A stretch of 64,000 nucleotides of DNA from Escherichia coli (lineage in GTDB: Bacteria > Pseudomonadota > Gammaproteobacteria > Enterobacterales > Enterobacteriaceae). Under the pieces are notes generated by a model that searched no databases, was not told where the DNA came from, and worked only from the letters and a program-made list of their open reading frames with translations. Shown here in pieces: positions 6,963-40,252 of this stretch. Location: assembly GCF_003019035.1 (NCBI RefSeq), contig NZ_CP027447.1; one strand, 5' to 3'. The first letter of the stretch is position 1; the number at the start of each line of letters is the position of its first letter. The position numbers were made by a program, and so were the translations under genes.

Positions 6963-8351
6963 TTATTTTTGGCTGAACTTCCGCCGACCATAAACCAGCC
7001 AGGTCAGTAGCACGCAAACGATGTAGAAGATTAAAAACACTTTCATCGCGCCCACCGGAGAGCCGGTCATATTGAGCGACATGCCAAACGCCTGCGGAAT
7101 AAAAAAGCCGCCCACTGCGCCAATGGCTGAGATAAAGCCCAGAGCGGCTGCCGTTTCGGTGACGGCTTCTCTTTGAGCTTGCTCATCACTACCGCCTTTC
7201 ATCTTCACCCGATAAATGGTTATCTGGCGAAAGATGACGGCGATCATCTGGAAAGTAGAACCACTTCCCAGACCCGCGGTCAGAAACAGCCCCATAAATA
7301 CGGCGTAAAATGCGATGAAATTACCGGAGCCTGTGCCCGGTAAGGTAAGGAACAGCAGGGCGCTGAAAATCGCCATAAAAATGAAGTTGATCAACGTCAC
7401 CCGCACGCCGCCGAATTTATCGGAAATAGCACCACCAACCGATCGCGCGATGGCACCGATAAATGGGCCAAAGAACGCCAGGCGCAGAATATTCACATCC
7501 GGGAACTGAGTTTTCGCCAGCATGGCAAAACCCGCAGAAAAACCGATAAACGAACCGAAGGTGGCAAGGTAAAGCAGGCTCAGCAGCCAGAGATGCAGGC
7601 GTTGTAACACTGGCAGCTGGTCGGCAATTGACGCGCGTGAACTGGCGATATCATTCATCCCTGACCAGGCGGCGATCGTGGCAATCGCCAGTAATGGCAC
7701 CCAAATCCATGCGGCATTCGCCAGCGACATCACCGAACCGTCGGCCTGCGGTACGCCATTGACGCCGAGAAAGGCAAATACGGGTACAAAAATGACCAGC
7801 GGTGCAACCAGCTGCATCACACTTACACCTAAGTTTCCTAATCCGCCATTAATCCCAAGTGCGCTCCCTTGTTTGGCTTTTGGGAAGAAGAAACTGATAT
7901 TGCCCATGCTCGAAGCAAAGTTCGCACCTGCAAAACCGCATAGCAAAGCGATAACGATAAATATCCCAAAAGGAGTATTCGGATTCTGCACGGCAATTCC
8001 GAGCCAGACGCAAGGAATAATCAGGATTGCAGTACTAAAAACCGTCCATCGGCGTCCACCGAATATAGGCACCATAAAGGAGTAGGGGACACGCAATAAT
8101 GCGCCAGAAACGGAGGGTAATGCGGTTAATAAAAAGAGTTGATCGGTAGTGAAATTAAAACCGATTTTATTGAGATTAACAGTAACTGCGCTAAATAGCA
8201 TCCAGACACAGAAGGCAAGAAGTAGACAACTGACTGATATCCAGAGGTTTCTTCGTGCAATATGTTTTCCTTTATTTTCCCAGAAGGCCGGATTTTCTGG
8301 TTTCCAGTCGCGTAAAAGATAACGACTATTTTTCTCATTTTGCAGTGCCAT
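6963..8351 (-). CDS. narU: Nitrate/nitrite transporter (MFS, NarK family)
   Basis: ORF 6963..8393; probable start at ATG 8349-8351 (MALQNEKNSRYLLRDW), about 462 aa; multi-pass membrane protein upstream of narZ. Confidence 0.85.
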   Translation of the reverse strand: MALQNEKNSRYLLRDWKPENPAFWENKGKHIARRNLWISVSCLLLAFCVWMLFSAVTVNLNKIGFNFTTDQLFLLTALPSVSGALLRVPYSFMVPIFGGRRWTVFSTAILIIPCVWLGIAVQNPNTPFGIFIVIALLCGFAGANFASSMGNISFFFPKAKQGSALGINGGLGNLGVSVMQLVAPLVIFVPVFAFLGVNGVPQADGSVMSLANAAWIWVPLLAIATIAAWSGMNDIASSRASIADQLPVLQRLHLWLLSLLYLATFGSFIGFSAGFAMLAKTQFPDVNILRLAFFGPFIGAIARSVGGAISDKFGGVRVTLINFIFMAIFSALLFLTLPGTGSGNFIAFYAVFMGLFLTAGLGSGSTFQMIAVIFRQITIYRVKMKGGSDEQAQREAVTETAAALGFISAIGAVGGFFIPQAFGMSLNMTGSPVGAMKVFLIFYIVCVLLTWLVYGRRKFSQK

Positions 8352-8660: not shown

Positions 8661-9917
8661 TCACTGAAAAGGCCATGAGCTGGAGGAAAACGATCTGTCC
8701 AGAAAGTCTATCGGTTCCTCTCTTATCGCCTCATTGTAATAATCGTTATTACAGTAAGTATTGTTTATTTCATCTAATGTCATATTTTTAGTTTTTATAT
8801 TCATCTGATTTACAACTTCTTCTGTTTTATAAGTGTGTATATTATATGGGGTATATGCTTCTTTAATAGTATAGTGAAACAATTCGTTATCCACATCTAC
8901 TCCGTCAGAGTGAACTTCAAATGCACCAGGCGAAAGAATTGCCAGGCCAGTATTAAGCTTAAGTGCTGGGGAAAATAAATTAAATAACATGAGCTGCATA
9001 GTAGGGCAATTGTTCTTCCCAGAAACATTTAAAAAATTTAAGTTTTTGCTCTGTTTTATTATGGGGAATAAAGTTCCAATATCGGATGTATTCTTAGTGT
9101 CAATGCGGGTTATTTTATTATTGTCCAGCCTTAAACTTTTGATAGATGAAAGATAAGTCAGGAAATGAAGGTTTATTTTTTCCAACTGATTGTTCGCAGC
9201 GTTTAATGTCTGAACATTGCAGAAGTTGCTAAAGAATATTTTAATTTCAGAAAGCAAGTTGTTGTTGATAAGTAACGTATTCAAGTTGGGGAATAAGGCA
9301 TTATGTAAACTTGTTAGTTTATTATGGGATAGATCCAGCAGTAAAAGTTCATCTTTATTTCCTGCCACAATATCAGTTAATTGATTGTGGCTGAGATTCA
9401 GGTACTGCAGCCTTTCGCAACATTCTAATTGCACAAACTCTAGTTGATTATGTGCCGCACTAAAATAAGTAATTGATGAAAGCCGATCTATATCAATATT
9501 TCTGAGAGAATTATTATTCATAGATATATGTGTAATGCTTACATTTCTACCTTGAGGCAAATTTATTGACTCAAGAGCATTACTATTCAGACTAAGCTTT
9601 ACGAGTCTATCGTAGGTGGTTGTATCAAAATGTGTGAGTTGGTTATTATCAAGATTGATAGAGGTGAAGTTTTGCAGCCCTGGTGGTTGGGTAGTTAAAT
9701 TAAGTCCTGATAAATCAATATCATTCTGTTTCGACAAAAAAGCACAATTTATCCTTTTAGCGGCTTCGTTTCGGCATTCCGGACGATGGATTTCACCTGT
9801 AAGTATGCGTTCTGCTTTCCATTGATTTAATTCGAGCATCCAGTTAAATTCATTTTTTTCTGGATGTTGCTGTATGGATTGTGGATTTATTTTATTAAAT
9901 ATTGAAGGGAATTTCAT
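8661..9917 (-). CDS. Leucine-rich repeat protein (YddK-like)
   Basis: 418-aa ORF with many LxxLxLxxNxL repeats (e.g. LQYLNLSHNQLTDI, LLLLDLSHNKLTSL); AT-rich coding sequence. Confidence 0.7.
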   Translation of the reverse strand: MKFPSIFNKINPQSIQQHPEKNEFNWMLELNQWKAERILTGEIHRPECRNEAAKRINCAFLSKQNDIDLSGLNLTTQPPGLQNFTSINLDNNQLTHFDTTTYDRLVKLSLNSNALESINLPQGRNVSITHISMNNNSLRNIDIDRLSSITYFSAAHNQLEFVQLECCERLQYLNLSHNQLTDIVAGNKDELLLLDLSHNKLTSLHNALFPNLNTLLINNNLLSEIKIFFSNFCNVQTLNAANNQLEKINLHFLTYLSSIKSLRLDNNKITRIDTKNTSDIGTLFPIIKQSKNLNFLNVSGKNNCPTMQLMLFNLFSPALKLNTGLAILSPGAFEVHSDGVDVDNELFHYTIKEAYTPYNIHTYKTEEVVNQMNIKTKNMTLDEINNTYCNNDYYNEAIREEPIDFLDRSFSSSSWPFQ

Positions 9918-32809: not shown

Positions 32810-33040
32810 ATGTGTATTAAAGCCGAAAAATATATTGAATGGGTTAAACACTGTCAGTGCCACGGGGTGCCGCTGACGACATATAAATGCCCCGGATGTG
32901 GTGAACAGATTATGACGCAATGCTCACCCGAAAAGGAAATTCGGGATTCCCTGACATGTTGTCCGTGGTGCAGCGCGGTTTTCTTTAAGCAGGTAAAAGG
33001 CGCGAAGGTAAAAGCCAGCGCAGTTATTCAGAATCAATAA
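32810..33040 (+). CDS. Small cysteine-rich early protein (possible zinc ribbon)
   Basis: ORF 32786..33040; probable start MCIKAEKY; CQCHG...CPGCGEQ...CCPWC cysteine pattern. Confidence 0.5.
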   Translation: MCIKAEKYIEWVKHCQCHGVPLTTYKCPGCGEQIMTQCSPEKEIRDSLTCCPWCSAVFFKQVKGAKVKASAVIQNQ

Positions 33041-33051
33041 GGAGAAACAAA

Positions 33052-33321
33052 ATGGCAAAGGTTATCTTTGAGTTTACATGGCTGGAAAGTAGTGACGGTT
33101 GCAATGGGCGCAGAGAAGTTCTGGATGCAAAAGCATGTCTTGCAGATATCTCGCCAACGGAAAATACCGGGCCTCATGATTTACTGGCAAATATCGTCCT
33201 GACTATGGCTCCTGAAATTATTAAAAAGGCCAAAGATGAGATGCTGACCACTATGAAGAAAGTGGGTATGGAGGCTGAATGTGATTTAGTACCACATCCG
33301 GTGAATGCGGTTAAACATTAA
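33052..33321 (+). CDS. Early-region hypothetical protein
   Basis: 89-aa ORF with RBS-like AGGAGA upstream; same strand as early operon. Confidence 0.5.
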   Translation: MAKVIFEFTWLESSDGCNGRREVLDAKACLADISPTENTGPHDLLANIVLTMAPEIIKKAKDEMLTTMKKVGMEAECDLVPHPVNAVKH

Positions 33322-33341
33322 TTCGCAAAGGAGCGCTGACA

Positions 33342-33761
33342 ATGAACGTCAAAATCCGAAATGAAATTCAGGCATTAATCCGAATTCAGGAACGCAATAA
33401 CAACGGTGGTGAATTACGCGAGTTTATTTGCGCCCGGAAAGTTGATGGTTGTGGTGAAAAGACTTACCTGATTGCTTTCGACCATTACAGCATCTGTGCG
33501 CGTTATTGCGGCGAAAGCATATCCCGCGCCATTGCATTTGGCGGTGCGTTCAACGTGGATTTATGGGAGTACGTCATGGACCGGGAATACATCTGCGCAT
33601 CAGACCCTGAAGCCCGTGAAATGTGGCAGCGTATCTGGCGCGATTACCGGTTAATGGCAAAAGGCTGGGCGCGCTGCTGTTATTCCTCGCTTGCCCTGAA
33701 AGCGGTTCAGTTATCGCTACGGCATATTCCGGCATCACTGCGCGAGCCTCTGCTGTACTGA
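33342..33761 (+). CDS. Early-region hypothetical protein (cysteine-rich)
   Basis: 139-aa ORF, AGGAG RBS upstream, several Cys residues. Confidence 0.5.
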   Translation: MNVKIRNEIQALIRIQERNNNGGELREFICARKVDGCGEKTYLIAFDHYSICARYCGESISRAIAFGGAFNVDLWEYVMDREYICASDPEAREMWQRIWRDYRLMAKGWARCCYSSLALKAVQLSLRHIPASLREPLLY

Positions 33762-34061
33762 ATGGTGACTGACATGAAGTGTAATCGTAAGCGCTGGTCA
33801 CGCGAAGACCGGGAATTTATCGAAGCCAACGTCGGAAAAATGACCGTTGAAGAAATGGCGGAAAAACTGAAAGTCGCCACAACCGCCCTCCGGGCACATG
33901 CCAGAAGGCACGGAATATCATTGTGTGTATACCGAATCAGTGAACACGACAAATATTTATGTCGTGAACTTTATAAAGAAGGACTGGATATTCATGTCAT
34001 TGCCCGAAAGATGGAATTAAGCAATCGAGCTGTATCCAGCATTGTATACAGCGGATATTAA
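33762..34061 (+). CDS. Early-region hypothetical protein with HTH-like segments
   Basis: 99-aa ORF contiguous with upstream gene. Confidence 0.45.
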   Translation: MVTDMKCNRKRWSREDREFIEANVGKMTVEEMAEKLKVATTALRAHARRHGISLCVYRISEHDKYLCRELYKEGLDIHVIARKMELSNRAVSSIVYSGY

Positions 34062-34080
34062 TTAACAGGAGCTTTAATTT

Positions 34081-34605
34081 ATGGCTAAACCAGCAAAACG
34101 TATCAAAAGTGCCGCAGCGGCTTATGTGCCACAAAACCGCGATGCGGTGATTACCGATATTAAACGCATCGGGGATTTACAGCGCGAAGCATCACGTCTG
34201 GAAACGGAAATGAATGATGCCATCGCGGAAATTACGGAGAAATTTGCAGCCCGGATTGCACCGATTAAAACCGATATTGAAACCCTTTCAAAAGGTGTTC
34301 AGGGATGGTGTGAAGCGAACCGCGACGAACTGACAAACGGCGGCAAAGTGAAGACGGCGAATCTTGTCACCGGTGATGTATCGTGGCGGGTCCGTCCACC
34401 ATCAGTAAGTATTCGTGGTATGGATGCAGTGATGGAAACGCTGGAGCGTCTTGGCCTGCAACGCTTTATTCGCACGAAGCAGGAAATCAACAAGGAAGCG
34501 ATTTTACTAGAACCGAAAGCGGTCGCAGGTGTTGCCGGAATTACAGTTAAATCGGGAATTGAAGATTTTTCCATTATTCCGTTTGAACAGGAAGCCGGTA
34601 TTTAA
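34081..34605 (+). CDS. gam: Gam host-nuclease inhibitor (Ku-like DNA end-binding protein)
   Basis: 174-aa ORF, size and sequence character of Mu Gam; AGGAG RBS. Confidence 0.85.
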   Translation: MAKPAKRIKSAAAAYVPQNRDAVITDIKRIGDLQREASRLETEMNDAIAEITEKFAARIAPIKTDIETLSKGVQGWCEANRDELTNGGKVKTANLVTGDVSWRVRPPSVSIRGMDAVMETLERLGLQRFIRTKQEINKEAILLEPKAVAGVAGITVKSGIEDFSIIPFEQEAGI

Positions 34606-34703
34606 TACCACCATTAATATTTAATTAATTCACATTCTTTTAATTATGGCGCGATGCGTCAGGGGATTGCTCGCGCCTGAAACAGATTACTGAGGAATAA
34701 AAC

Positions 34704-35234
34704 ATGGTTGATGCAAAAATTCTGAATGGTGTCAGCACATTATTACGGGCTTACGGACGCCTGACCTGCGGAGTTCTGGCTGAAAAAATGAAGATGCCTC
34801 CCTCATCAATGGTGTATTTCCTGCGTGATGCGGTTGATGTCGGCGTTCTCACCGAATGCAACGGATTTTATGACGTTCCGCGCCCGCGTCCGACGCCGCC
34901 TGTAAGACGAAACGCAACTGAGCAGCCTGCTGTTGATGATGCGGTGTGGTGCAACTGGCGTCGCTCATTACCCTGGGTGGAAGGTAATACCATCCCCGCA
35001 CTGGCAAAAGAGTTTGCGACAGGCGTACTGACCTGTGAGTCCGTTCACATCGTTGCAGAAGTGGATGACGAGATGTGCAAACAGGGAATGCCACGTTTTG
35101 TGATGGCTTATATCGATATCCGGCTGGGGCGGTTTATTTGCAGTTCAAGCGCCTGGAATATCACCGACCATGTACTGCGTTATCTCATTCTTGATTGTTC
35201 TCCGGCTCCCGTAGCGGTGCAGGAGGTGGCGTGA
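34704..35234 (+). CDS. Early-region hypothetical protein
   Basis: 176-aa ORF downstream of gam. Confidence 0.5.
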   Translation: MVDAKILNGVSTLLRAYGRLTCGVLAEKMKMPPSSMVYFLRDAVDVGVLTECNGFYDVPRPRPTPPVRRNATEQPAVDDAVWCNWRRSLPWVEGNTIPALAKEFATGVLTCESVHIVAEVDDEMCKQGMPRFVMAYIDIRLGRFICSSSAWNITDHVLRYLILDCSPAPVAVQEVA

Positions 35235-35758
35235 TGTTTTTTAAAACGTCAAATCCCGCAGCACTGCTGGCGTGGGACCAGTTTATGGCGGACTGTCTGA
35301 AACTACGCGAAGAAGCCCGCCATCTTGATAAGGTTCTGGGTTGTGGTTGCCGGTCAGTATTCAGCACAGGTATTGGTGGGCGTTATTTTCATGGTGTGAA
35401 CTTTCCGGGGAATGAGCGCCCTTTCTCGCGGGAGCTGTGGACCGTACAACGGCCCGCATCAGGTAACAGTTGCAGGCCTAGAACTTCGCGGATACCTGTT
35501 CATCTCAGGGAGCAGGCAAAAGAGCTGGCGAAAATATGGCAGGAGAATATTCCGGTCACTTATGCCCGCACAGATGCTCTTTTACCCGCACTGGGACTGG
35601 ATTTCAGCGCAACAATATTCGGGCCGCTCCGGTGGTTCCGTGTTGGTGATGTGATTTACGTCATGACGGGGATGACACCCGCACAGGGCTGCATGACGGA
35701 AATCCTGTCCGATGAATTCATGAAGGCAAAGATTGCGTTAAAGGGGGCCGCTAAATGA
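35234..35758 (+). CDS. Early-region hypothetical protein
   Basis: ORF 35195..35758; likely ATG 35234 (MFFKTSNPAALLAWDQF) with AGGAGG RBS at 35221, overlapping upstream stop. Confidence 0.5.
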   Translation: MFFKTSNPAALLAWDQFMADCLKLREEARHLDKVLGCGCRSVFSTGIGGRYFHGVNFPGNERPFSRELWTVQRPASGNSCRPRTSRIPVHLREQAKELAKIWQENIPVTYARTDALLPALGLDFSATIFGPLRWFRVGDVIYVMTGMTPAQGCMTEILSDEFMKAKIALKGAAK

Positions 35759-36423
35759 AAGAACGTGGCGTTGCTTTTAATGACGATATGGTCAGGGCAA
35801 TTCTCGAAGGAAGAAAGACGCAAACACGCCGCCCGGTAAAAAATGTCGGACACGATAACTGTCTGGTTATCCATCGTAACGGTGTTTATACCCACGTTAT
35901 GGATGCACCTGAGCATGGTTTATGCCCGTTCGGTAACGTTGGTGATCGCATCTGGGTCCGTGAAGCGTGGGCAATATTAGGCAATGAGGATGGTTGCAGT
36001 GTGGACTGGAACGGCAACCTTTGTCATGGCGATGAGAAGAAGGCAGCAAGGATTTATCGGGCAAGTTGTGAACAAAAGCCTGGTGATTACGGTCTGTGGT
36101 CAATACCTGATGATGCTGACTGGAAACCTCGCACTGTGAATGAAAAGTTTGATGGCAGGTGGTGCCCATCTATCCACATGCCGCGCTGGGCGTCGCGCAT
36201 TCTGTTGGGAATAACCGACGTGCGTGTGGAACGGCTGCATGATATTAGCGAGGCAGATGCGAAAGCGGAAGGCGCATTTCCGGCGACGTACAAAATTACG
36301 CCACCGGAAGCTGTTTATCGCGTTGGTTTTGGTGATATCTGGCGCGGTATTTATGGGCAAGATAACTGGCTGTCTAATCCGTGGGTATGGGTAATTGAGT
36401 TTAAGCGTATTCAGGAAGCATAA
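35755..36423 (+). CDS. Conserved prophage protein (ASCH/PUA-like N-terminal motif suspected)
   Basis: 222-aa ORF with N-terminal MVRAILEGRKTQTRRP and GDRIWVREAW motifs, recurrent in prophage proteins. Confidence 0.5.
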   Translation: MKERGVAFNDDMVRAILEGRKTQTRRPVKNVGHDNCLVIHRNGVYTHVMDAPEHGLCPFGNVGDRIWVREAWAILGNEDGCSVDWNGNLCHGDEKKAARIYRASCEQKPGDYGLWSIPDDADWKPRTVNEKFDGRWCPSIHMPRWASRILLGITDVRVERLHDISEADAKAEGAFPATYKITPPEAVYRVGFGDIWRGIYGQDNWLSNPWVWVIEFKRIQEA

Positions 36424-36425
36424 CT

Positions 36426-36767
36426 ATGAGCAAATCACTTAATGCACGTTGTATTCGCCGTTGGGAAGTCAGATTTAAGCCTGTTTGTGATTCAAAAGTT
36501 AGCCCTCACATGCGTAAAAGCTTTTTGCGTGGGGTGCGTGAATTAGGGCTTATTACGGCTGAAAACATGGTTGAAAGCATGGCTGAGAAAAACGCCAGGT
36601 TTGATTACGACGGCAAGGACACAGGCTGGTCACCGGAGTTTTCTAACTGGTATGCAACATGCCGAGAAAAGTATTGTAAAGAGGCCCGCGACTATCTGGA
36701 TGAAGAAGTCACAAACGATGAGATCGATGAAGAAATCAGAACTGAGCTAGAGTATTGGAATGACTAA
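36426..36767 (+). CDS. Early-region hypothetical protein with acidic C-terminal tail
   Basis: 113-aa ORF ending DYLDEEVTNDEIDEEIRTELEYWND. Confidence 0.45.
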   Translation: MSKSLNARCIRRWEVRFKPVCDSKVSPHMRKSFLRGVRELGLITAENMVESMAEKNARFDYDGKDTGWSPEFSNWYATCREKYCKEARDYLDEEVTNDEIDEEIRTELEYWND

Positions 36768-36837
36768 TCTGGCCGATATGACCGGAAAGTGTTTCAGCGA
36801 TACAAGCGGTGTGGTAGCACCGCTTTTTAAAGGTATG

Positions 36838-37392
36838 ATCATGAGTCGCACATCCCTGATTAAATTAATCCATGTCGCCCGTCGTGATCTACAACTCGAC
36901 GACGATACTTACCGCGCTTTTCTGATGCAGAAAACGGGCAAAATCAGTTGCCGCGAGCTGACGGTAACGCAACTGGAACAGGTGCTCGATGCCATGAAAG
37001 AACGCGGCTTTAAGAAGCTGAATAAACATCCACGTCGCCGCTTTAAGGGGCATGTCACGCCCCGCGAGAAGGTATACAAAGTCTGGCAGCAGATGGCAGA
37101 AGACGGTTTTATTACCGATGGCGGTGATGTGGCGCTGGATAAATATGTTCAGCGCCTGACGGCGAAACGTAATGGCGGACAGGGTGTTTCCACGCTGGCG
37201 TGGTGTCATGGCGACACCCTGTTGATTGTTCTCGAAACTCTCAAGCAGTGGCATATCCGCTGTATTCGTGAAGCCTTTTCCCGTCACGGGCTTCCGTTGC
37301 CGGTCAGTCCGTCCGGGCGTGAACTGCGCGGCTATGATGCCATGACGGCGGCTTATGCCCATGCCAGAAAGACACGGAGGATGGCACAATGA
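36838..37392 (+). CDS. gemA: GemA-like protein
   Basis: ORF 36760..37392; probable internal start MIMSRTSLIKLIHVARRDLQLDD; sits immediately upstream of mor as in Mu. Confidence 0.6.
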   Translation: MMSRTSLIKLIHVARRDLQLDDDTYRAFLMQKTGKISCRELTVTQLEQVLDAMKERGFKKLNKHPRRRFKGHVTPREKVYKVWQQMAEDGFITDGGDVALDKYVQRLTAKRNGGQGVSTLAWCHGDTLLIVLETLKQWHIRCIREAFSRHGLPLPVSPSGRELRGYDAMTAAYAHARKTRRMAQ

Positions 37393-37778
37393 CGGAAGAT
37401 TTATTTGGTGATTTGCAGGATGACACCATCCTGGCACATCTTGACAATCCCGCAGAGGATACGTCACGCTTTCCGGCACTGCTGGCGGAGCTGAACGATT
37501 TACTGCGCGGGGAATTGTCCCGGCTGGGTGTTGATCCTGCCCATTCACTGGAGATTGTAGTGGCTATCTGTAAGCATCTGGGCGGCGGTCAGGTCTACAT
37601 TCCACGCGGTCAGGTTCTGGACTCGCTGATTCGGGATTTGCGTATCTGGAATGATTTTAACGGTCGCAACGTCAGCGAACTGACCACCCGTTATGGTGTC
37701 ACTTTCAATACGGTTTACAAGGCCATTCGCCGGATGCGACGGCTGAAATACCGCCAGTACCAGCCCTCACTTCTGTAA
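37389..37778 (+). CDS. mor: Middle operon regulator Mor
   Basis: 129-aa ORF; C-terminal HTH (NGRNVSELTTRYGVTFNTVYKAIRR) homologous to protein C downstream. Confidence 0.85.
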   Translation: MTEDLFGDLQDDTILAHLDNPAEDTSRFPALLAELNDLLRGELSRLGVDPAHSLEIVVAICKHLGGGQVYIPRGQVLDSLIRDLRIWNDFNGRNVSELTTRYGVTFNTVYKAIRRMRRLKYRQYQPSLL

Positions 37779-37783
37779 ACAGT

Positions 37784-37808
37784 AAAGCCGGTTAATCCGG
37801 CTTTTTTT
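37784..37808 (+). terminator. Rho-independent terminator after mor (end of early transcript)
   Basis: AAAGCCGG-TTAA-CCGGCTTTTTTT. Confidence 0.7.
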
Positions 37809-37855
37809 ACGTCCTCAATATCCTGTGATGAATAACCGTACCGGGGGAAATCATC

Positions 37856-38086
37856 ATGGGTAAAGGCTGGAATGCATCCTTTCATCTTGGCAGACGTGAG
37901 CGGCTGCGTCAGGAGGTTTTGCACCGTGTCGCCGGTGGGCCTCGGCCTTCGCCCCGCGACTATACCGGTCATGATGGCACCCACGGCAGTTATTACATGA
38001 AAGGCTGGCAGTCAGTTGATATGCCGGAAATTCTTCACCACTGTCAACGTTATAAGGAAAAATATTGTGTACAGAAAATTCAGTGA
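37856..38086 (+). CDS. Hypothetical small protein between mor and C
   Basis: 76-aa ORF; weak support. Confidence 0.3.
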   Translation: MGKGWNASFHLGRRERLRQEVLHRVAGGPRPSPRDYTGHDGTHGSYYMKGWQSVDMPEILHHCQRYKEKYCVQKIQ

Positions 38087-38119
38087 TGAATGTTTCGGGC
38101 CGTCCACGCTGATTAGTGC

Positions 38120-38197
38120 GATAAAAGTGATTGCCCTTGTGGTTCTGATAACCATCAGTGCCGTGGTGTATCTTTCTGTCTGTTAACCGGGGGAAAT
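38120..38197 (+). promoter_or_regulatory. Probable Mor-dependent middle promoter region (Pm) upstream of C
   Basis: Position only: in Mu, Pm lies directly upstream of C. Confidence 0.3.
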
Positions 38198-38620
38198 ATG
38201 CAGCATGATTTATTTGAACACGATCCGGCAATTCGCCAGTTAATCGGACATATTGATAACATCCCGGCCCCGGAACTGGAATCACGCTGGCCCCGTTCGG
38301 TGGTTGATCTGATTGATGTTCTGGAAAACGAACTGAAACGCCAGAACGTCAGCAATCCCCGTGAACTTGCCCGTAAACAGGCCGTTGCCCTGTCCTGTTT
38401 TCTGGGGGGGCGGCAGTTTTACATCCCCTGCGGCGATACTATCCTGACCGCGTTACGCGACGATTTGCTTTACTGCCAGTTCAATGGTCGTAACATGGAA
38501 GAACTGCGTCGCCAGTACCGCCTGTCCCAGCCGCAGATCTACCAGATTATTGCCCGCCAGAGAAAGCTGCATACACGACGTCATCAGCCTGATCTGTTCT
38601 CACCTGAAAGCCAGAAATAA
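38198..38620 (+). CDS. C: Late transcription activator C
   Basis: 140-aa ORF; C-terminal region (NGRNMEELRRQYRLSQPQIYQIIARQRK) paralogous to Mor. Confidence 0.85.
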   Translation: MQHDLFEHDPAIRQLIGHIDNIPAPELESRWPRSVVDLIDVLENELKRQNVSNPRELARKQAVALSCFLGGRQFYIPCGDTILTALRDDLLYCQFNGRNMEELRRQYRLSQPQIYQIIARQRKLHTRRHQPDLFSPESQK

Positions 38621-38646
38621 CCGGCATCCTGCCGGTTATTTCCTGT
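38620..38646 (+). terminator. Hairpin after C
   Basis: CCGGCA-TCC-TGCCGG followed by TTATTT. Confidence 0.4.
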
Positions 38647-38649
38647 CAC

Positions 38650-38711
38650 CATAATCCCGCACCTGCCATCTGATTTTTTAGACTGCCATCAGAGCATTTT
38701 TTCAGGGAAGC
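38650..38711 (+). promoter_or_regulatory. Probable C-dependent late promoter (Plys) region
   Basis: Position only, between C and lys. Confidence 0.3.
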
Positions 38712-39230
38712 ATGATGGCGGGGATACCAAAAAAACTGAAAGCCGCACTGCTGGCGGTAACGATTGCCGGTGGCGGTGTGGGTGGTTATCAGGAAATGAC
38801 CCGTCAGTCTCTGATCCACCTGGAAAATATCGCTTATCTGCCTTACCGCGATATTGCCGGTGTGCTTACGGTCTGTGTGGGACATACCGGGCCGGATATC
38901 GAAATGCGCCGTTACAGCCATGCGGAGTGTATGGCTCTCCTCGACAGTGATTTAAAACCGGTTTATGCGGCAATCGATCGTCTTGTCAGGGTGCCGCTGA
39001 CGCCATATCAGAAAACGGCGCTGGCAACGTTTATTTTCAACACCGGTGTTACCGCATTCAGTAAAACAACGTTGCTGAAAAAACTCAATGCCGGTGATTA
39101 CGCCGGAGCGCGTGACCAGATGGCCCGCTGGGTGTTTGCCGCAGGCCATAAATGGAAAGGACTGATGAACCGTCGCGAAGTGGAAATGGCAATCTGGAAT
39201 ATCAGGGGGGCGGATGACCTTCGCCAGTAA
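38712..39230 (+). CDS. lys: Endolysin (lysozyme-like) with N-terminal signal-anchor
   Basis: 172-aa ORF; N-terminal hydrophobic Gly-rich segment LKAALLAVTIAGGGVGG. Confidence 0.8.
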   Translation: MMAGIPKKLKAALLAVTIAGGGVGGYQEMTRQSLIHLENIAYLPYRDIAGVLTVCVGHTGPDIEMRRYSHAECMALLDSDLKPVYAAIDRLVRVPLTPYQKTALATFIFNTGVTAFSKTTLLKKLNAGDYAGARDQMARWVFAAGHKWKGLMNRREVEMAIWNIRGADDLRQ

Positions 39231-39600
39231 AAGTTTACTGCTGGCAGCCGTGTTTGCCGCCGTTCTGTCTGGGGTGTTGTGGCACAGGCTGGACAGCACC
39301 CGCCACGATAACCAGACGCTGCGCCGTGAATTACAGACGGAGCAACAGGCCCGCAACACGGCTGAATGGTTGTTACACAGTCAGGAACAGACGATGCAGG
39401 TATTTTCCGCTATCCGTGCCGCAAATCGTGCCGCGCGGCTGGCAGATGAGACAGAACATCATGATGCAAAACAAAAAATTACAACCGCCATTACCGGTGA
39501 CAATTGCAGCACTCGTCCTGTGCCTGCCGTTGCTGCTGACAGGTTGCGGGAACTCGAAAAACGCACCCGTGCCATCGGTGGTGATCCTGCCCGAAACTGA
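39214..39600 (+). CDS. Inner-membrane spanin-like protein
   Basis: 128-aa ORF with N-terminal TM helix (LLLAAVFAAVLSGVLW) then charged coiled-coil-like region. Confidence 0.55.
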   Translation: MTFASKSLLLAAVFAAVLSGVLWHRLDSTRHDNQTLRRELQTEQQARNTAEWLLHSQEQTMQVFSAIRAANRAARLADETEHHDAKQKITTAITGDNCSTRPVPAVAADRLRELEKRTRAIGGDPARN

Positions 39601-39802
39601 TGCAGAACTGACGGAAGCAACGCCCGTTCCGCCCATGCCACAGCCCCTGACGTGGGGAGCATCCCTTCTCTGGAATGCTGACCTGCTGATGGCGCTCGGG
39701 CAGTGCAACCGCGACAAGGCATCAGTCCGGGAACAGGAGACCCGGAGGAAAGAAATTTATGAACGAAGACCAGAACCGGGCGGTGGCGCTGCTGCTCGCT
39801 GA
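39461..39802 (+). CDS. Outer-membrane lipoprotein spanin-like protein, overlapping the preceding gene out of frame
   Basis: Within ORF 39254..39802: MMQNKKLQPPLPVTIAALVLCLPLLLTGC... with lipobox LTGC; Pro-rich. Confidence 0.45.
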   Translation: MMQNKKLQPPLPVTIAALVLCLPLLLTGCGNSKNAPVPSVVILPETDAELTEATPVPPMPQPLTWGASLLWNADLLMALGQCNRDKASVREQETRRKEIYERRPEPGGGAAAR

Positions 39803-39953
39803 ACTCTGGCAGGGGAATACCCGTGATATTCCCCGTCCGGCGGCGTATGACCCGCCTGTATTGTGTGCCGGTTGCGGTCGTGAGCTGCGGCCTGATGTGC
39901 TGAGACAGCAGCCAATGGCGAACTACTGCCACTGGTGCCGTGGAGCAGAATAA
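39759..39953 (+). CDS. Small Cys4 protein
   Basis: 64-aa ORF with CAGCG...CHWC. Confidence 0.35.
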   Translation: MNEDQNRAVALLLAELWQGNTRDIPRPAAYDPPVLCAGCGRELRPDVLRQQPMANYCHWCRGAE

Positions 39954-40252
39954 TGGATTTGATTTCAGTTTTAGCGTTATGGCCTTACCTGTTGCCTGTT
40001 GTGGCCGGTGGGGCCGTCTGGGCGATGCGTCGTAGTTTTGCCAGCACCGAGCGTGTGGAGCGTCTTGAAAACCGGATGACCGAAATGGAAACCCGCTACG
40101 CCAGCATCCCTGGCACAGAAGATGTACACGAAATGCGCCTGCGTATTGCAGAGCTGTCCGGCGATATCCGGGTGCTGTCCCAGCGGGTGCAGTCATTTTC
40201 CCATCAACTGGAGCTGCTGCTTGAAAACGCAGTAAACCGGAGTAATTCATGA
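39953..40252 (+). CDS. Hypothetical small membrane/coiled-coil protein
   Basis: ORF 39935..40252; likely ATG 39953 overlapping upstream stop; MDLISVLALWPYLLPVVAGGAVWA TM segment. Confidence 0.45.
   Translation: MDLISVLALWPYLLPVVAGGAVWAMRRSFASTERVERLENRMTEMETRYASIPGTEDVHEMRLRIAELSGDIRVLSQRVQSFSHQLELLLENAVNRSNS

Follow-up and report, generated by a model that had tools for sequence, protein, structure and literature searches.

A Mu-like prophage of Escherichia coli has in its early region a 113-codon ORF whose product ends in a strongly acidic stretch, which raises the question of whether the ORF is a real gene, how it came to lie there and what its protein may do. In this study, we analyzed the ORF, its relatives and their genomic surroundings, starting from a 64,000-nucleotide stretch of contig NZ_CP027447.1 (assembly GCF_003019035.1; hereafter the window), to which positions refer unless stated otherwise. 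The features of the locus are collected in Table 1.

Table 1. Features of the locus, with positions in the window
Feature	Position	Strand	Remarks
1,078-bp mosaic cassette	35722..36799	+	ASCH-like gene and 113-aa ORF; break in Mu homology
Upstream ASCH-like gene, 222 aa	35755..36423	+	phrog_874 match; co-transferred with the 113-aa ORF
Shine-Dalgarno-like AGGAAG	36413..36418	+	7 nt 5' of the ATG; sequence inspection
113-aa CDS	36426..36767	+	ATG start; PHROG 6675 member; predicted five-helix bundle
Conserved acidic amphipathic C-terminal helix (predicted)	36714..36761	+	Residues 97-112, NDEIDEEIRTELEYWN
8-nt junction ATGACTAA	36760..36767	+	Final codons and stop overlap the ATG of the downstream frame

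The gene and its family

We found that the 113-aa ORF is a genuine gene. Its coordinates, length and C-terminal sequence (...DYLDEEVTNDEIDEEIRTELEYWND), which the original prediction had given as those of a small ORF with a strongly acidic C-terminus, were all confirmed, and its place between gam and gemA bore out the description as a small early-region gene; it is from this place in the Mu early operon that we infer its early status. The preceding ORF stops at 36421-36423, only 2 nt ahead of the ATG, which suggested an operon arrangement with translational coupling. No ORF of at least 40 aa was present on the opposite strand beneath the gene, an Rfam search of positions 33000-40000 matched no RNA family, and no promoter-like site was found inside the cassette. 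The protein matched the PHROG 6675 profile with an E-value of 4.1e-58 (195.8 bits), residues 1-113 aligning with positions 1-114 of 114. Purifying selection was strong among 66 homologues (median pairwise dN/dS 0.088, dS ~1.2), and residues 89-113 formed the most constrained segment (dN/dS 0.065, dS ~1.0). The identical protein was recorded on 864 contigs, and the gene is also carried by an isolated phage, PhiR68_1.

PHROG 6675 is an already catalogued, uncharacterised phage family, of which the 113-aa protein is an additional member. Homologues formed 205 clusters at 90% identity, nearly all of 112-118 aa, in prophages of Enterobacterales, with hosts that included Escherichia, Klebsiella, Citrobacter, Enterobacter, Raoultella, Kluyvera, Pectobacterium, Pantoea and others. 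The family is narrow: when 1.84 billion representative proteins were searched exhaustively with a profile, only 49 matched. The matches, all of them fragments or small proteins of phages or prophages, were uninformative; one of 1,017 aa was a low-complexity repeat artefact. Within E. coli, just 86 of 5,426 complete genomes carried a homologue, and a version at least 99% identical was found in 7. A remote relative, P0145 (L089, 1485..2132), is 215 aa long and has an N-terminal extension of about 80 aa that looked winged-helix-like by eye; Pfam did not recognize the extension, which has been seen on just one metagenomic contig of 2.2 kb, and P0145 may be a real fusion.

Invariant or nearly invariant positions of the family comprised W13, C21-D22-S23-K24, W29, R30, R38, T44-A45, G67-W68-S69, F72, W75, E107 and W111. 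The window copy shares this conserved core, together with the acidic helix ending in Trp, except at residue 29 (36510..36512), which is Met here and in the closest relatives and Trp, within a WRK motif, in about 90% of the family. Around position 37 it is also one residue shorter, and Y110 takes the place of an Ala of the relatives. Eight positions (D98, E99, D101, E102, E103, E107, E109 and D113) were acidic in at least 94% of the 66 homologues, and an acidic helix of the pattern EEIDxxIxxEI[DE]xW stood at or beside the C-terminus in all relatives, to which neither those at 33-40% identity nor the remote ones were an exception.

The original statement that no function is evident from the sequence held as well: all database homologues were 'hypothetical', and Pfam, NCBIfam, PADLOC and PDB gave no matches. 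Specifically, the Pfam scan of the 113-aa protein yielded no family at E <= 0.1, nor did 25 members of PHROG 6675, scanned at E <= 10, agree on any. The PADLOC library holds defence rather than anti-defence proteins, so that the lack of a match there says little. PDB searches with the single sequence or a profile returned only noise (e.g., herpesvirus gB at E = 0.1). A resemblance to anti-defence proteins that have been characterised was likewise not detected, and the literature, searched by phage name, PHROG identifier and a sequence motif, yielded nothing about the gene. Nothing in NCBIfam rose above noise; PBP_1a_fam, the only match, scored 11 bits where the cut-off is 508.75. Some sources label the exact protein 'membrane peptidoglycan carboxypeptidase', a name that is a mis-annotation with this noise-level match as its likely source.

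A foreign cassette in a Mu-like prophage

The prophage around the gene and Escherichia phage PhiR68_1 were about 98% identical. Pfam matches identified Gam, GemA, Mor and a homologue of gp11 in the prophage, and the gp12 homologue, C and lysozyme were placed by the PhiR68_1 annotation and DNA identity to Mu. In the alignment with Mu, homology ended at 35721 (Mu 7441) and restarted at 36800 (Mu 8188), with flanks that were 95-97% identical to Mu. The cassette between these points stands in for Mu 7442-8187 (746 bp; gp13, gp14 and gp15), between gp12 and gemA. The 113-aa ORF is not a canonical Mu gene.

A comparison with Mu gp14 and gp15 had been put forward in the original prediction, and the 113-aa protein does share several features with gp13, gp14 and gp15: the same gp12-gemA slot in the semi-essential early region, a similar small size and an unassigned function. 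However, these Mu proteins have no sequence similarity to the 113-aa protein, and the window holds a foreign cassette in their place. BLASTP against Mu gp14 gave no alignment at E <= 100, and a tblastn search of about 50,700 phage records found no match in Mu, D108 or SfMu, the only match in the Mu group being PhiR68_1. The ORF as an equivalent of gp14 or gp15 was therefore rejected, and the assumption of such an equivalence is hereby corrected.

The two-gene cassette was also found, at about 80-90% DNA identity, in circular phage-plasmids of about 49 kb from E. coli and Yersinia, and the 342-bp gene alone reached up to 92% DNA identity to the phage-plasmid copies. The 222-aa protein encoded by the first gene contains a GRKTQTRR motif and is named 'ASCH domain-containing protein' in RefSeq; its match to the ASCH domain of human ASC-1 was weak (E = 0.012), and Pfam ASCH remained below threshold. 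The gp12-gemA interval is a variable hotspot of cassette exchange in Mu-like phages, because D108 and SfMu carry yet other contents there: gp13-15 in Mu, gp13-14 and a gap in D108, and about 0.5 kb of additional DNA with an extra gene in SfMu. Our results also mark this interval of Mu-like phages as an exchange slot that they share with lambdoid phages and phage-plasmids.

Several other differences from Mu were observed in this prophage. The GemA ORF (36760..37392, + strand) encodes 210 aa here and in PhiR68_1, and 183 aa in Mu, D108 and SfMu. The start equivalent to that of Mu is at 36841, and the 27-codon in-frame extension ahead of it crosses the cassette junction (36799/36800) and covers a small hairpin with a T-run at 36811-36828. 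The start of the shorter form is probably the true one. In addition, the gp7 region of Mu is swapped for unrelated sequence at 33072..33326, and the gp19 region (Mu 9463-9831) is missing at about 38068.

Gene neighbourhoods and the 3' junction

Our survey of gene neighbourhoods covered 78 non-redundant loci, with IMG/VR, GenBank phages and assemblies as the sources, and at all of them the family gene lay in a variable early or accessory region. In lambdoid and Rac-like prophages it lay between the recombination genes and xis/int, in the Rac-like ones directly after recE-recT, whereas in FelixO1-like lytic Ounavirinae it lay in the early region, immediately preceded by genes for a polynucleotide kinase and a small hypothetical protein; at one locus, it formed an isolated insertion among tail genes together with a second gene. 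RecT was encoded upstream at 25 of the 78 loci and a conserved 74-aa ORF at about 20. An ASCH-like gene was directly adjacent at 19 loci (5 upstream, 14 downstream), and a MazG-like dATP/dGTP pyrophosphohydrolase ('EaA', PF04447) lay directly downstream at 16-19; the remaining loci had SAM methyltransferases, a C5 DNA methylase, PAPS reductase, Ead/Ea22-like genes and others. Orphan DNA methyltransferases were found within 3 kb at 18 of the 78 loci. Among the Ounavirinae, 'Listeria phage LPML1' was syntenic gene for gene with Hafnia phage SarahDanielle near the homologue (L005, L006), with rIIA/rIIB, transglycosylase and polynucleotide kinase genes in common, and its Listeria host label looks doubtful.

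These neighbourhoods bear on the idea that the 113-aa protein is an accessory subunit, regulator or chaperone of a neighbouring enzyme, here the ASCH-like protein, made at a fixed ratio with it through translational coupling. The two genes entered the Mu backbone together, an ASCH-like gene adjoins family members on either side at the 19 loci mentioned above, and another ASCH/DUF3850 gene lies 1.3 kb off in the locus of a remote relative. On the other hand, 59 of the 78 loci had no ASCH-like neighbour, and most E. coli records with an ASCH-like gene had no PHROG 6675 gene. Obligate pairing with the ASCH-like gene was rejected on these grounds. Since the neighbours vary and the ASCH-like gene often occurs alone, the PHROG 6675 gene is a stand-alone module and not half of an obligate pair.

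The 3' end of the gene was unusually constant in its relation to the following gene. An 8-nt junction of the form ...ATGA[CT]T[GA]A (ATGACTAA or ATGACTGA), whose ATG opens the next gene, was present at 68 of the 78 loci, and at least 16 unrelated families were represented among the genes that followed it. Mosaic recombination and translational coupling thus recur at the 3' end. Judging from the consensus protein, the codons just before the junction (ELEAW in most relatives) may also supply the ribosome-binding site of the next gene. Such an overlap could be taken in favour of an enzyme helper, but start/stop overlaps are the norm in these phage operons and the partners here are too diverse; we consider this role quite improbable.

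Because the 3' end carries the start codon of the next gene, the 'acidic tail' is under an added constraint at the DNA level. This, and the observation that conservation is highest at the two ends of the gene, might suggest a spurious or decaying ORF kept only because its ends act as recombination linkers and provide the gene behind it with a ribosome-binding site and a start. However, selection acted over the whole length (dN/dS 0.09 at dS ~1), the fold was predicted with confidence (see below), and conservation at the protein level extended to 33% identity in unrelated phage types without the junction; the tail motif itself was kept in Ounavirinae and remote relatives that lack it. Selection, conservation and fold confidence leave this reading very improbable and effectively refute it.

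Predicted fold, possible roles and known systems

The whole 113-aa protein contains 24 Asp/Glu and 19 Lys/Arg residues (pI 5.04, net charge -5.4), which are unevenly distributed: the last 25 residues (89-113) have 12 acidic residues and a single basic one (net -11), and residues 1-40 carry a net charge of +8. The protein is a charge dipole and not uniformly acidic. AlphaFold2, run with a 25-sequence alignment, gave a compact all-alpha model of high confidence (mean pLDDT 92.3, pTM 0.82) with helices at residues 5-16, 18-22, 27-62, 70-94 and 97-112. The C-terminal helix had a pLDDT of about 94, falling to about 80 in the last three residues. Its hydrophobic stripe was formed by I100, I104, L108 and W111, with the invariant E107 on the same face, and D98, D101, E102 and E109 were directed away from it. 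The acidic 'tail' is thus predicted to be a folded, partly buried amphipathic helix that packs on the helical bundle rather than a disordered segment. Foldseek comparison of the model with PDB and BFVD gave no match at E <= 0.001. A homodimer test by tandem fusion, a crude method, produced no confident dimer (pTM 0.46, pLDDT 62.8).

Several specific types of protein were considered with this model at hand. An acidic tail of the SSB type, which is disordered and attached to an OB domain, was rejected because the C-terminus is helical and the protein all-alpha in the AlphaFold2 model. A metal or disulfide site at C9/C21 was rejected as well, as C9 is lost in Ounavirinae and C21 in remote relatives; a metal or catalytic site is unlikely in general, since Cys and the DSK motif are absent from the remote relatives. 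No catalytic motif or nucleic-acid-binding fold of known type was found in the protein, and a HEPN-like Rx4-6H motif, sought by eye, was absent.

The tail had originally been likened to those of DNA-mimic, anti-restriction and chaperone-like proteins, an analogy that fared poorly against a structured helix, a pI of 5.04 with 19 basic residues and the lack of fold similarity. In its specific form, the acidic C-terminal surface would imitate the DNA backbone and block a restriction enzyme or a DNA-binding defence protein. The conserved run of acidic residues described above (12 of the last 25, eight of them acidic in at least 94% of the family), the small size and the early accessory setting are consistent with this, as are the orphan DNA methyltransferases near family members and the position just after recT in Rac-like prophages, where Rac has its restriction-alleviation gene, lar/ralR. 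However, known DNA mimics are, to our knowledge, acidic throughout, whereas residues 1-40 here are strongly basic; strong acidity overall with few basic residues is not what this protein displays. Moreover, its acidic stretch is a single, partly buried helix of 16 residues, no Pfam Lar/Ral match was obtained, and neither sequence nor fold found a match in PDB, although Ocr, ArdA and Arn should be present in the PDB libraries. DNA mimicry therefore seems unlikely to us; since DNA mimics, as far as we know, share no common fold, it nevertheless keeps a small probability as far as computation goes, and the genomic niche lends it a residual plausibility.

The opposite end of the molecule could point to a small nucleic-acid-binding regulator, whose basic N-terminal half would bind DNA or RNA while the acidic helix modulates this activity or recruits a partner. 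The positive charge of residues 1-40, with conserved R8, R11/12, K24, R30, K31 and R38, would fit such a role, and so would the frequent neighbours acting on nucleic acids or nucleotides (ASCH, methyltransferases, polynucleotide kinase and the MazG-like enzyme) and the winged-helix-like extension of P0145. However, no helix-turn-helix or other DNA- or RNA-binding family was detected, and the extension, seen by eye on that one contig, is itself without a Pfam match. A regulator of this kind is rather doubtful.

The explanation that we favour, though tentatively and at less than even confidence, is that the 113-aa protein is a stand-alone, early, host-targeting protein that acts by stoichiometric binding and serves host takeover or counter-defence without being indispensable. 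The gene is an accessory, 'moron-like' gene that was carried into the semi-essential early region of a Mu-like prophage, entering on the 1.08-kb cassette together with an ASCH-domain gene and displacing gp13-gp15 of Mu. It would presumably be transcribed with the Mu early operon, with its translation coupled to that of the upstream gene, and soon after infection or induction its product would bind a macromolecule of the host (or of the phage), through a surface formed by the conserved acidic helix face and the conserved Trp, Phe and Arg residues. The likeliest role would be a dispensable one in host takeover or counter-defence, like that of other genes of variable early regions. We show that the gene is real, which family it belongs to, where the cassette came from, and its predicted fold, charge layout and selection; early expression, the way in which the product binds and its part in counter-defence are inferred, and genomic context makes an anti-defence role possible. 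Several observations weigh against this host-targeting reading. Some acidic residues may be purely structural, as the invariant E107 lies on the buried helix face, and the acidic helix may just neutralise the basic N-terminal helices within the fold. Furthermore, the start codon of the next gene accounts for part of the conservation at the 3' end, an accessory-region context is weak evidence of function, and no resemblance to characterised anti-defence proteins was detected.

A bolder form of the idea, which we regard as unlikely, is that the family represents a new and structurally unprecedented class of counter-defence or takeover proteins. By means of its conserved acidic, Trp-ended helix, the protein would attach to a protein of the host, perhaps a defence factor that binds nucleic acids, and the 3' end of the gene would be a universal, translationally coupled 'socket' for the swapped ASCH, MazG-like, methyltransferase and PAPS reductase enzymes. 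As it stands, the gene is one more conserved hypothetical accessory gene of a prophage, ordinary for such regions, for which a confident fold model without known relatives is now supplied. If the family proved to be a counter-defence factor, it would be a new class of small proteins, and one that is easily tested with a stand-alone gene of 113 codons.

Known systems were also compared with the protein. DNA-mimic anti-restriction proteins are small, early and rich in Asp and Glu, and Ocr is all-helical. The 113-aa protein resembles T7 Ocr, ArdA and T4 Arn as a small Asp/Glu-rich protein of a phage or plasmid that is presumably made early. However, its net charge is far weaker, it has many basic residues and a single amphipathic acidic helix, it shows no sequence or fold similarity to them, and no confident homodimer was obtained for it. 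The likeness to Lar (RalR) of Rac and to Ral of lambda is positional only, after recE-recT and before xis/int, whereas size and predicted fold differ, with neither a Pfam Lar match nor sequence similarity. With the small proteins of the lambdoid ea or exo-xis region (EaA, Ead/Ea22), the family shares the niche and the orientation, and both undergo mosaic exchange and overlap tightly with adjoining genes. Ead/Ea22-like genes and EaA, which Pfam now lists as a dATP/dGTP pyrophosphohydrolase, are frequent direct neighbours, yet they are not homologous to PHROG 6675. The closest agreement is with PHROG 6675 itself, where the length, both termini and the acidic C-terminal helix correspond between the 113-aa protein and its homologues, the difference being that the window copy resides in a Mu-like and not a lambdoid backbone.
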